Made by a program: the position numbers and the translations under genes. A stretch of DNA of 64,000 nt, taken from the NCBI GenBank assembly GCA_951406725.2, contig OX597831.1, positions 5,146,001 to 5,210,000 on the forward strand, read 5' to 3'. Of the stretch, positions 18,254-22,602 are shown piece after piece. Within the stretch, counting starts at the first letter, position 1. Each line of letters starts with the position of its first letter. Below the pieces are notes generated by a model. The model did no database searches. It saw nothing but the letters and a program-made list of their open reading frames with translations, and was not told the origin of the DNA. This stretch comes from Octopus vulgaris. Its lineage: Eukaryota.

Positions 18254-19280
18254 CAGATAAAAGAGGGTGGGAGAAGACGAAGGTAGATTTGGGATGCGGT
18301 GAGGGAAAGGACGAGAGGTGGGGAAGAGACGACAGATGTGGGGCAAAGGAAATTGGTTCCAGTTAATTGGCTGTCATTTATCGACCCTTAAAGGTTAACA
18401 GGTGAGTCGGATTTCAGGTGGTAGACGACCAGAAAGAACACCAGAACACATTATATGTCCAACGCTGCTACAATTCTGTGAATTCGCCAATTCAAAAAAA
18501 AAAAAAAAAAGTTGAGGATTGAATTTTGAGAAAGTTTTAATGGAGGAAACTGTTCAGATCGCCAGCGACTTTCGATGGTTCCAAATGCCTGGGGACCGAT
18601 TAACACCAACTCAACTCTTTTTTTGCTTCGTTCCCTGTCTATATTTTCACCTCACATATTCTACCAACAATGTGTAATTGTGAGCATTTGCCTGAGTAGA
18701 GATTCTCTATCCACATAGTAAGCGTACCCCATAGCACATAGTACATTGTAGACATATTGCGTACACATTAGGAAAAAAAAAAAAACAGGATCAAATTTCC
18801 TCCATGTGCCATAGACTCATAAGGCGGGTGTCACAAATTCTGTAGAATTTATATTCTCCCTTTGACACAGGATTACTCATTTTTGCCAGCTGAGTGAACT
18901 GGAGCAATGTCAAATAAAGTGGTTTGCTCAAGAACATACTGCATCGCCCAGCCCAGAAATCGAAACCACAACCTTTACGATCATGAGTACAACACCCTAA
19001 CCACTACGCTACGCACCTCCACCATAATAAAAGACGTTTCCATAAACATTACATAGACGTCCCCTATACGCATTGTTTAATAGCCATACACCATACATGT
19101 TGCGTAATGGACGTTATCCATGTGAGTGGCTGTGTGGTAAGTAGCTTGCTTACCAACAACATGGTTCCGTGTTCAGTCCCACTGCGTGGCAACTTGGGCC
19201 CAGTGTCTTCTACTATAGCCTCGGGTCGACCAAAGCCTTGTGAGTGGATTTGGTAGACGGAAACTGAAAGAAGCCGGTCG

Positions 19281-19353
<73 letters not shown>

Positions 19354-19613
19354 TGAGGGAGATAAATTAATATTAATTTTAATATCAATTTAAAACCAGT
19401 AGTCCAGCATTCAAAAAATCTGAGGAGTCAGAGAAAATTCAAATATATGTGTATATTGGCAGGGCTGGCCTGCTAGGTAGCCGGCCAGAATGCTAGAAAT
19501 AGATCATCAACGATCAAACTACAAGGGAAATTCTCTAGAGGAAGAATTCAGCGAACACCAGAACCAAATTTGGCGGGCAGGACATATGAAAAATTAAATA
19601 AAAAACAGACTTA

Positions 19614-19689
19614 AATGCATACCTCGGTTTCGGTCTTAACAAAAGAATTACTTGCATAATTCAAGTGTCCGTGACTTCTTCAGTACATT
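19614..19689 (-). ncRNA. Type I hammerhead ribozyme with minimal stem III
   Basis: Reverse complement of the motif at 20590-20665. Confidence 0.72.
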
Positions 19690-20589
19690 CGGTCCTCGAG
19701 ATGCAAACCGCAAGACTAACCCCAGCTCTCTGTGTCAAGACAGACACGTGCTTAGTCTTACTGATTACATCGGGAATAAAATTTCAAATGTCTTGGTTCC
19801 GGCGCGCTAAGAGACTCCTGAAGCGAAGGGCTGCAGTGAATAATTCACTGCGGGTAAAGCTTACTACTAGGGAACGTATTTATTTAAATATTTAAAAATT
19901 GAGGGAGATAAATTAATATTAATTTTAATATCAATTTAAAACCAGTAGTCCAGCATTCAAAAAATCTGAGGAGTCAGAGAAAATTCAAATATATGTGTAT
20001 ATTGGCAGGGCTGGCCTGCTAGGTAGCCGGCCAGAATGCTAGAAATAGATCATCAACGATCAAACTACAAGGGAAATTCTCTAGAGGAAGAATTCAGCGA
20101 ACACCAGAACCAAATTTGGCGTGCAGGACATATGAAAAATTAAATAAAAAACAGACTTAAATGCATTGGTTCTGGTGTTCGCTGAATTCTTCCTCTAGAG
20201 AATTTCCCTTGTAGTTTGATCGTTGATGATCTATTTCTAGCATTCTGGCCGGCTACCTAGCAGGCCAGCCCTGCCAATATACACATATATTTGAATTTCC
20301 TCTGACTCCTCAGATTTTTTGAATGCTGGACTACTGGTTTTAAATTGATATTAAAATTAATATTAATTTATCTCCCTCAATTTTTAAATATTTAAATAAA
20401 TACGTTCCCTAGTAGTAAGCTTTACCTGCAGTGAATTATTCACTGCAGCCCTTCGCTTCAGGAGTCTCTTAGCGCGCCGGAACCAAGACATTTGAAATTT
20501 TATTCCCGATGTAATCAGTAAGACTAAGCACGTGTCTGTCTTGACACAGAGAGCTGGGGTTAGTCTTGCGGTTTGCATCTCGAGGACCG

Positions 20590-20665
20590 AATGTACTGAA
20601 GAAGTCACGGACACTTGAATTATGCAAGTAATTCTTTTGTTAAGACCGAAACCGAGGTATGCATT
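20590..20665 (+). ncRNA. Type I hammerhead ribozyme with minimal stem III, predicted cleavage after GUA at 20659
   Basis: Stem I AAUGUA/UGCAUU; core CUGAAGA (20596-20602); stem II (A)GUC...GAC(C) with inner hairpin; GAAA (20648-20651); stem III ACC-GA-GGU; H17=A. Confidence 0.72.
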
Positions 20666-20798
20666 TAAGTCTGTTTTTTATTTAATTTTTCATATGTCCT
20701 GCCCGCCAAATTTGGTTCTGGTGTTCGCTGAATTCTTCCTCTAGAGAATTTCCCTTGTAGTTTGATCGTTGATGATCTATTTCTAGCATTCTGGCCGG

Positions 20799-20848
<50 letters not shown>

Positions 20849-22602
20849 TTGTGTGTCTGCGTTTGTCACCAAAAACATCGCTTGACAACCGATGCTGGTG
20901 TGTTTACGACCCCGTAAATTAGCCGTTCGGCAAAAGAAACCCATAGAATAAGTACTAGGCTTTCAGAGAATAAGTCCTGGAGTCGATTTGCTCGATTAAA
21001 GGCGGTGCTCCAGCATGGCCGCAGTCAAATTACTGAAACAAGTAAAAGAGTAAGAGCAGACGTACCCCATACACATTATATAGTCGACGTGCTGCATATA
21101 CATTGCATGGAAGAAGTACACCATACGCACTGCAGAGCTGTTGTACTCCTTATTCATGTTATGCTGACGGAACTGTCATTTTTCAAATCAGCTTCTGAAC
21201 ACTATTGTCTCGGTTCCTATACTTCATAGAGGCGGTTACCTGGTTTCTATCGTGTATAAGTGACCTGGATTACAATAATCCTCTTCGAATGCGACACCAG
21301 TCCATTGCAGGGTCACCTGTATACTGCCGAGTGAACTGGAGCAAGAAGAAATAAAGCGTTTTGCTCGAGTATAAAGCGCACCGCCCTTTCTGGGAATCGA
21401 AAGCACTATCTCGCTGTCGTGAATGTAAGATCCTAGTCACTAGGTCATGCGCTTTCATGGGTGACTCAAAAGTTCTATCATGTTACCGAGTCGGGTTTTC
21501 TTTCTATTAATTGTTCTGCCGCGAGCTACGAACGATCCAAATGGAAGGGAATTCGTTCCAATGCAAAACAAGTGGATATTTTTCTGTGTGAGATGACGTC
21601 AGATCAACCTCCGATCAAAGCCAGAAACAGCAGTAATATCAACTATCATTCATTCCACCAGTAACAATACGAAACATTAACACGATAGATACAGCAGCTC
21701 TCAGTTCCGGTGTCTCATGATGACGCTCCAGCATGGCCACAATACCCTGGTTGATTAAGACAGTAAAAGAAAAGTCAATTTCTTGAGTGGACGTCATCAC
21801 TTCTGATATTTCGCATTGGTTTATTTACCAAAAAAAATTTTTAATGAAGAACAACAAAGAGTCTCACTCGTAATTAATATTCAAGTTGAACTCAATTAAC
21901 AAATAATATTGCTAATTAACAAATGGTATTGCTAATTAGGCGAAATGAAAGTAGAAGTTTAAAGAGGAAAATACCAACAGCCATGAAATGAAAGTGAATA
22001 TGTTTATAGTGTTATAGCGTCATCATCGTCATCTTTGTATCACCGTCATCGCCGCCGACATTATTGCCACCATCATCATCATCATCATCGTCGTCATCGT
22101 CGCCTTTGCACCATTATCATCAACGTCGCCATTACTCTCCTCCTCCTCATCATCATCGTCTCCGTTATCATCCTCATCCTCGTCGACACCATTATCATCA
22201 TAGCATCATCGTCGATGCTATTATGAACATTGTTATCATCTTTGTCGCCATTATCATCATTGTCATCGCCTCTTTCATCGCCGTCATCGTCATCAATATT
22301 ATATTCATCGTCGTCATCATCATCATCATCATCATCTTAGTTCAGGTTCGAGCCTACAAGTAGTTATCACTCCCCATTCTAATACATCCTACCATCTTAA
22401 AATGATGAATGGCATTGAATAATGGAATTCTAGATAGACTGTATTCTTTTATTCCTTTGTTCTTTTATTCTTTTACTTGTCTCAGTCATTTGAGTGCGGC
22501 CACACTGGAGTACCGCCTTGAAGGATTTTAGTCTAACAATTCGACCGCAGGACATAGTATGTATGTATGTATGTATGTATGTATGTATGTATGTATGTAT
22601 GC

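Follow-up and report, generated by a model that had tools for sequence, protein, structure and literature searches.

In a 64,000-nt stretch of the Octopus vulgaris genome (GCA_951406725.2, contig OX597831.1, positions 5,146,001 to 5,210,000; hereafter the window, from whose first letter all coordinates are counted), a tandem repeat carrying a hammerhead ribozyme motif turns back on itself at the very nucleotide where the ribozyme is predicted to cut. This raises the question of what kind of element this is and whether, as the original prediction held, its junction is a genomic record of cleavage in vivo. The element is real and of a known kind, of which it is a new family member. The focal insertion is probably a young, non-coding, 546-nt hammerhead-bearing repeat, i.e., an animal non-LTR retrozyme, which would have been inserted by a Penelope-like enzyme from a predicted circular RNA. 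Its junction is a different matter, as we discuss below.

We numbered unit positions (u) along the hammerhead strand, with u1 being the base directly after the predicted GUA cut, which at the focal locus corresponds to 20165 and 19619 on the minus strand and to 20660 on the plus strand. Much of the initial description of the locus stands. There are 1.5 direct copies (19348-19620 and 19894-20166, with a spacing of 546 and 1 mismatch in 273 nt), TA sequence is present on both sides, the sense strand of the left arm begins at the first base past the predicted GUA cut while the T at 20166 fits either arm, and the unit is non-coding, with no Met-started ORF of more than 64 codons in any frame of the tandem unit. 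A rolling-circle ORF, conceivable for a length divisible by 3, was ruled out by stops in all six frames of the unit. Some points needed correction. The inverted copy is there (19478-20113 against 20166-20801, 636 nt, 2 mismatches), but since arm 2 starts 52 nt inside arm 1, at u53, the focal insertion is not a symmetric fold-back. Similarly, of the minus-strand hammerheads predicted for each full unit, one is found on that strand, whereas the other lies on the plus strand in arm 2 (Table 1), and the second direct copy contains just the 3' strand of stem I, not a complete hammerhead. On the hammerhead strand, both arms point away from the junction and each ends in (TA)n.

Table 1. Features of the focal insertion and its flanks (window coordinates)
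Feature	Position	Strand	Description
Left half of dispersed, presumably SINE-like repeat (host)	19125..19281	+	Adjoins right half elsewhere
Left (TA)n tract	19282..19347	.	TA sequence; target and putative primer for arm 1
Arm 1	19348..20165	-	818 nt, full 546-nt unit from predicted cut plus u1-272; 3' end at site B
Hammerhead in arm 1	19614..19689	-	Complete type I motif; predicted cut between 19620 and 19619; identical to plus-strand copy
Unpaired spacer of arm 1	20114..20165	-	52 nt without mirror partner at junction; starts at predicted cleavage product
Head-to-head junction	20165..20166	.	0-1 nt microhomology
Arm 2	20166..20801	+	636 nt, u53 round to u142; terminates on TA upstream of site A
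Hammerhead in arm 2	20590..20665	+	Complete type I motif; predicted cut after 20659
Right (TA)n/(TG)n tract	20802..20849	.	TA/TG sequence; target and putative primer for arm 2
Right half of host SINE-like repeat	20850..21050	+	Adjoins left half elsewhere

The plus-strand motif consists of a stem I formed by AATGTA/TGCATT, core segments CTGAAGA and GAAA, a stem II closed by an A.C pair and prolonged by a 38-nt extension with a GNRA-type loop, and a minimal, self-complementary stem III. Across the family, the type I core reads CTGA(A/T)GA and GAAA with the cut triplet GTA (NUH), the A/T at position 7 being an allowed variation. An Rfam search, proposed as a check on the motif, returned no hammerhead among its 15 matches at E≤5 (18500-21500). 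Support for the fold comes instead from an alignment of the focal copy with 27 copies of older subfamilies, which are 80-93% identical and bring the set to 22 distinct sequences. In this alignment, 94.4% of the cells are paired; pairing is complete (100%) in stem I, where one pair varies (U-A 13, A-U 8, and C-G 1), and stem II shows a C-G to U-A change. None of 500 shuffles reached the covariation score, but 56 of 500 reached the number of covarying pairs, and for 27 of the 28 rows the search motif itself had predetermined the 3' half of the hammerhead. This comparison backs a hammerhead fold apparently maintained by compensatory changes in the older subfamilies. The G10.1-C11.1 closing pair of stem II is missing in the focal copy; A.C is found in 17 of the 22 distinct sequences and G-C in 5, all of one older subfamily. 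Stem III is predicted to be poor as a hairpin alone (+1.8 kcal/mol) and stable as a self-duplex (-6.6 kcal/mol), likewise a property of the dimer-acting animal hammerheads in the account given in PMC4209133. Since stem II is closed by A.C and the active monomer fold is predicted to lie 2.2 kcal/mol above the minimum, ribozyme activity may be low. Self-cleavage of the focal hammerhead is a prediction; for frog retrozyme dimers, 8 of the 9 tested gave no in vitro cleavage according to the experiments reported in bioRxiv 10.64898/2026.07.22.740005. The whole unit (G+C 212/546) is predicted to fold as a highly structured RNA, with z = -4.95 and 0 of 100 shuffles equally stable.

How the arms begin and end was determined at the level of the family. 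In the genome (2.8 Gb, 227 contigs), one 23-mer of the unit has 475 exact matches and a motif of older subfamilies 155 further ones, and the top copies are 97-100% identical. All 50 loci marked by the 23-mer on contigs C1 and C2 served as an unbiased sample, which comprises 33 head-to-head insertions, 14 single arms, and 3 complex loci, with arrays of up to 3.9 units. Nearly all arms that were printed run into TA tracts at their 3' end, and these ends fall into two classes, A (u165-180) and B (u255-292), both of which are TA-like and followed by (TA)n, and both of which are shared by the older subfamilies. Among 58 pairs in 83 loci, of which 2 are duplicates, 41 are A+B, 16 are B+other, and 1 is A+other, with no A+A and no B+B. 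The lone A+other pair (L099) has a second arm that reaches B beyond a small deletion, and this arm was recoded to B by hand when counting arm reach and B arms per pair. Each pair thus has exactly one site-B arm, with a tail of about 100 nt. As for the single-arm insertions of the 50-locus sample, 7 end at A and 7 at B, so that site A is also used without a B arm. In the 83 loci, arms never continue into a PLE (Penelope-like element) ORF. Two insertions have been duplicated entirely with their flanks (L018/L030 in a tandem block on C14 and L110/L122 in two places on C2), and L030 and L122 were dropped as duplicates. Near-identical unit sequence is also found in sequencing runs labelled with four organisms, which means that either the family or the labels span related species.

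What was the template for these arms? The original idea of a circular or multimeric RNA fares well, because 3' ends internal to the unit (u175 and u275), together with the fact that most arms cross u546/u1, imply either a circle or an uncut multimer. These crossings are clean, with an indel within 6 nt of the cut site in 0 of 142. Locus-private substitutions covered two or more times in an arm number 82 (L018 and L022 left out); 18 of them are in every unit, 0 in some, and 64 in one, the 18 including double counts and corresponding to about 15 distinct variants; three loci (L014, L096, and L132) have private variants in all three units. At subfamily sites, disagreement was seen in 5 of 713 comparisons made within loci, as against 42% of those between loci. 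The share of A>G/T>C is 23/46 among shared variants and 23/151 among single-copy variants (P=5e-6, with 11 loci left out as duplicates, older subfamilies, L022, and L090), and the shared variants are therefore unlike later mutations spread by gene conversion. Private variants in every unit and agreement within loci indicate a bottleneck of one unit, a pattern among genomic copies that points most simply to a circular RNA template, as has been proposed for retrozymes in the discussion of them in PMC7229834.

It is possible, although we think it unlikely, that the template was instead linear and uncut, a transcript reading through a tandem source array, with a weak or idle hammerhead and no need for a circle. 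Reading through the cut site is equally compatible with uncut RNA, the A.C pair closing stem II fits such a scenario, and the experiments on an anole PLE described in PMC11167929 found that unprocessed RNA was mainly used and that ribozyme mutants still inserted. What speaks against a linear template is that private variants in all units and near-total haplotype agreement within loci need a one-unit bottleneck, that 5'-truncating copying of linear arrays would be unable to regrow arrays of 3-4 units, and that the fold has been preserved by compensatory changes. Sequencing runs guessed to be RNA are neutral in this respect: their unit-covering contigs cross the cut, and a joint that goes back 546 was seen in 2 of 4 runs, where circle and tandem, as well as RNA and DNA, are indistinguishable. 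The RNA nature was a guess for 14 unit-containing runs, with no RNA run on record.

Several observations concern the variants themselves. A-to-I editing was rejected as a general source of variants because A>G (29) and T>C (32) occur without strand bias. There is a weak hint of editing at u435, u439, and u482, where A>G recurs in two subfamily backgrounds (L012, L023, L025, L117, L124, and L127). The paired substitutions G>T and G>A at 20568 and 20570 (u455 and u457) turn up in roughly 10 loci belonging to different subfamilies, usually in one unit only (L014, L019, L023, L026, L027, L076, L113, L119, and L132). They may reflect a hairpin stem that is a hotspot of mutation or, alternatively, an artefact of the assembly. 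In L131, a variant is found in alternate units of a 3.3-unit arm, which is what a dimeric template predicts, at a CpG that may have undergone recurrent mutation.

We next consider how two arms come to be joined. Self-priming, which had been predicted for the focal locus, is disfavoured as a general rule since it needs, in its simple form, arm 2 to be inside arm 1, and in 12 of the 33 unbiased pairs the non-tail arm extends further 5'. The other arm is within the B arm in the remaining 21 of 33, and neither arm contains the other in 17 of all 58 pairs. Joints without insert (n = 48) overlap by a mean of 2.4 nt vs. 0.70 in simulations, with overlaps of at least 2 nt in 25 of 48 vs. 17% simulated, bearing in mind that BLAST overlaps may be slightly inflated. 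Since site A is used alone as often as site B, priming from both ends of the target fits best. A bolder version of this, to which we give somewhat less than an even chance, has the Penelope-like enzyme working as a pair: it would twin-prime from either cut end of the TA tract, using two fixed sites of a single circular ribozyme RNA, and the two rolling-circle cDNAs would be joined head to head.

The probable course of the insertion would be as follows. Transcripts of a source array with at least two hammerheads would be cleaved into single units, a step in which dimers probably form through the self-complementary stem III, and the units would be closed into circles by ligation. The enzyme would cut both (TA)n strands, and each 3' end would prime within the RNA. 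Site B (u ~272-281) would serve one of them, and site A (~172-177) or a short upstream match to TA would serve the other. The end classes and the one-B-per-pair rule are what we observe, whereas the priming itself is deduced from them. Both cDNAs would proceed toward the 5' side of the RNA across the ligated cut, for up to 3.9 units, as the observed read-through suggests. They would then stop at scattered places, and microhomology of a few bases would unite them in head-to-head orientation, a mechanism suggested by the joints we see, with each joined cDNA presumably acting as the template for the second strand of the other. If true, twin priming on a circle would account at one stroke for the tail of PLEs, the inverted arm, and the synthesis of the second strand, and would give genomic proof that retrozyme circles are used as templates. 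A related process is twin priming of LINE-1, in which both target ends prime on the RNA and the cDNAs join by microhomology, leading to an inversion whose arms do not overlap. The octopus arms, in contrast, copy the same stretch, which requires strand displacement, a circle, or two RNA molecules. The PLE protein assayed in PMC11167929 cuts and extends both strands in vitro and uses two internal RNA start sites; the start site characterized there lacks homology to the cleaved DNA, in contrast to the TA-like sites A and B.

The alternative, a published proposal for PLE inverted repeats as set out in PMC3846280, is that head-to-head arms arise by self-priming (fold-back) of one cDNA, here followed by lopsided central deletions making the arms unequal. 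It can claim the 21 pairs in which the other arm is inside the B arm, as well as 7 of the 33 unbiased pairs that are near-symmetric at hairpin or palindromic sites, as self-priming predicts. We nevertheless consider it rather unlikely because an extra deletion would be required in 12 of the 33 pairs and single arms end at A and B alike. Moreover, private variants are common to both arms in 12 of 95 cases, i.e., no more often than to the units of one arm (18 of 82), and in L027 a variant in both units of one arm is missing from the other arm. One of the 7 near-symmetric pairs, L094 (2683-3160), is perfectly symmetric, with both arms starting at u540 and a joint formed by the stem III palindrome.

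We can now return to the focal junction, which proves to be poor evidence of cleavage. Genome-wide, 3 arms start at the cut, the focal copy being among them, vs. 240 exact read-throughs counted with the same downstream 21-mer as the cut-start pattern, with a detection rate of end patterns estimated at 56%; at most about 2% of passes thus stop at the cut. The pile-up of 5' ends that would be expected of a cleaved template was not seen either: across the 50 loci of C1 and C2, none of the 85 ends lay at -1/+1, the nearest being at +3, while 67 passes crossed the site. Control positions of the same design gave 0 ends at u56, 0 at u492, and 5 at u442, which is beside a hairpin, and the cut site is therefore no stronger than structural stop sites. 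By chance, 0.5-1.0 arms would be expected to start at the cut, which gives P(≥3) of about 0.02-0.08 with the focal copy and P(≥2) of 0.10-0.26 without it. There may thus be a small excess of ends at the cut.

We regard it as improbable that, at the focal locus, reverse transcription reached the 5' end of an RNA cut by the ribozyme, ran off it, and continued by self-priming, leaving a junction that records cleavage in vivo. Arm 1 does begin at the predicted cut to the base, arm 2 is entirely within arm 1, and two further arms begin at the same place when two arbitrary controls have none. However, apart from the read-throughs, the empty unbiased sample, and the ends collected by a hairpin site that is not a cut, the focal copy was selected because of its position at the cut, and its cDNA end and restart point are 52 nt away from each other without pairing. 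In addition, all 3 cut-start arms retain the A that precedes the cut and belongs to an ATGCAT palindrome; the partner arm of L033 does not account for this A, which would there require an uncut template or a substitution. Since almost all other copies read through the cut, the focal match probably arose by chance, and the stop of arm 1 is likely to be either that or a rare run-off. If twin priming on a circle is correct, the few cut-start arms would represent rare cases of run-off, on circles that the ribozyme had opened again.

The focal element is inserted inside the TA tract of a dispersed host repeat, which we take to be SINE-like, and whose two halves are adjacent at 41 other places (window and fetched loci), mostly with 20-100 nt of TA/TG between them. 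Within such (TA)n sequence, any target-site duplication would be masked. An assembly or long-read fold-back artefact can be dismissed because, even though the 20165/20166 junction is unbridged by the contigs listed from four public runs (which may be other individuals and whose contigs break in repeats), the flanks are the two halves of a single repeat in normal order rather than mirror images, the focal arms are offset by 52 nt and distinguished by 2 substitutions, and 57 other pairs have the same build, each with different joints.

The kinship with non-LTR retrozymes and PLEs that was originally recognized is supported: a non-coding tandem unit with a type I hammerhead, inserted PLE-style. 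By its testable features, the octopus family is a retrozyme and not an autonomous PLE. As portrayed in the sections of the reports that describe them, animal non-LTR retrozymes (Cervera and de la Pena 2020, PMC7229834; Li, Clavereau and Pollet 2026) are likewise non-coding tandem repeats, with one type I hammerhead per unit, a short self-complementary stem III, and a GC content below 50%, and for them too a circular RNA template and mobilisation by PLEs are both proposals. A mismatch at the base of stem II is reported in the description of an axolotl retrozyme family (bioRxiv 10.64898/2026.07.22.740005). The 546-nt unit is outside the size range given in PMC7229834 (170-400 nt) but inside that given in bioRxiv 10.64898/2026.07.22.740005 (51-972 nt), and its long stem II extension sets it apart from the retrozymes portrayed in those sections. 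Word searches of the main texts of PMC7229834 and bioRxiv 2026 found no inverted arms, no two fixed 3' ends, and no (TA)n targeting. Retrozymes have been argued, in a part of bioRxiv 10.64898/2026.07.22.740005, to be non-autonomous PLE sequences; for the octopus unit, no pLTR homology to an autonomous PLE was detected in 40 GIY-YIG loci, mostly of one family.

The mode of insertion is that of EN+ PLEs, specifically those of the Neptune/Nematis type (Craig et al. 2021, PMC8557442; Arkhipova et al. 2013, PMC3846280; Frangieh et al. 2024, PMC11167929), which likewise have 5'-truncated partial tandems, (TA)n targets, an inverted 5'-truncated head-to-head copy, a tail at one end only, internal start sites, and a hammerhead. 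Compared with EN+ PLEs as depicted there, the octopus family has no ORF, its repeated unit is the whole element, its start sites are TA-like, and its tail is about 100 nt long vs. 30-40. Non-autonomous Chlamys PLEs such as MRC1 also form multicopy head-to-tail insertions by means of PLE machinery, but in the relevant section of PMC8557442 their 3' sequence is in general common to them and an autonomous family, and hammerheads are absent from most Chlamys PLEs. Full-text searches of the literature yielded no cephalopod retrozyme and no PLE twin priming, although repeat databases and supplements may list the family, and a word search of an octopus repeat annotation (PMC13282606) gave 0 occurrences of ribozyme, hammerhead, or retrozyme.

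Both the origin of tandem and inverted PLE insertions and the movement of retrozymes via RNA circles on PLE enzymes are presented as open questions in the passages of PMC8557442, PMC7229834, and bioRxiv 2026 that address them. A short, young, many-copy family provides countable footprints for both, namely, the strict one-tail rule, unequal arms of a kind that simple self-priming would not produce, and variants in every unit of an array. The focal junction contributes little to this; it is the family-level footprint of a likely circular template and of two-ended priming that matters.

A candidate helper is encoded in the same genome. Among the 150 candidates scored out of 6136 in a GIY-YIG search, 16 copies contain a frame of 781 aa that matches RVT_1 and GIY-YIG and includes a CX4CXXC linker, a mark of Neptune/Nematis in the classification given in PMC8557442. 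The intact Neptune-type element terminates in (TA)n. Its 37 loci include 6 head-to-head insertions, in all of which one arm is tailed (27-36 nt) and the other tail-less. No homology between the unit and autonomous PLE termini was detected by blastn and nhmmer in 40 GIY-YIG loci, mostly of one family, and since the unit and the Neptune-type element have no detectable sequence in common, the latter is a candidate helper family only. A 546-nt substrate and an intact candidate enzyme from one genome nevertheless permit a direct in vitro test. The Neptune-type PLE is young, intact, and TA-targeting, with a period of about 4.7 kb (L054-L069 and L164-L183, e.g., L057:2126-4468). It has an extra upstream open frame, of up to 479 aa from stop to stop, in which no Pfam match exceeded the cut-off. 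Near the 3' end of this PLE, a possible variant hammerhead (U3-A8 core, palindromic stem III) can be read by eye. In L130 (87-6213), a retrozyme pair follows the 3' end of a nearly full-length Neptune-type PLE at a distance of about 430 nt, a proximity that may reflect a shared TA preference only. Finally, a regular-expression scan found other hammerhead-like motifs with different stems (L037, L041, L045/L055, L052, L062, L066, and L114), which, judging by the motifs, are further families of hammerhead repeats in this genome.
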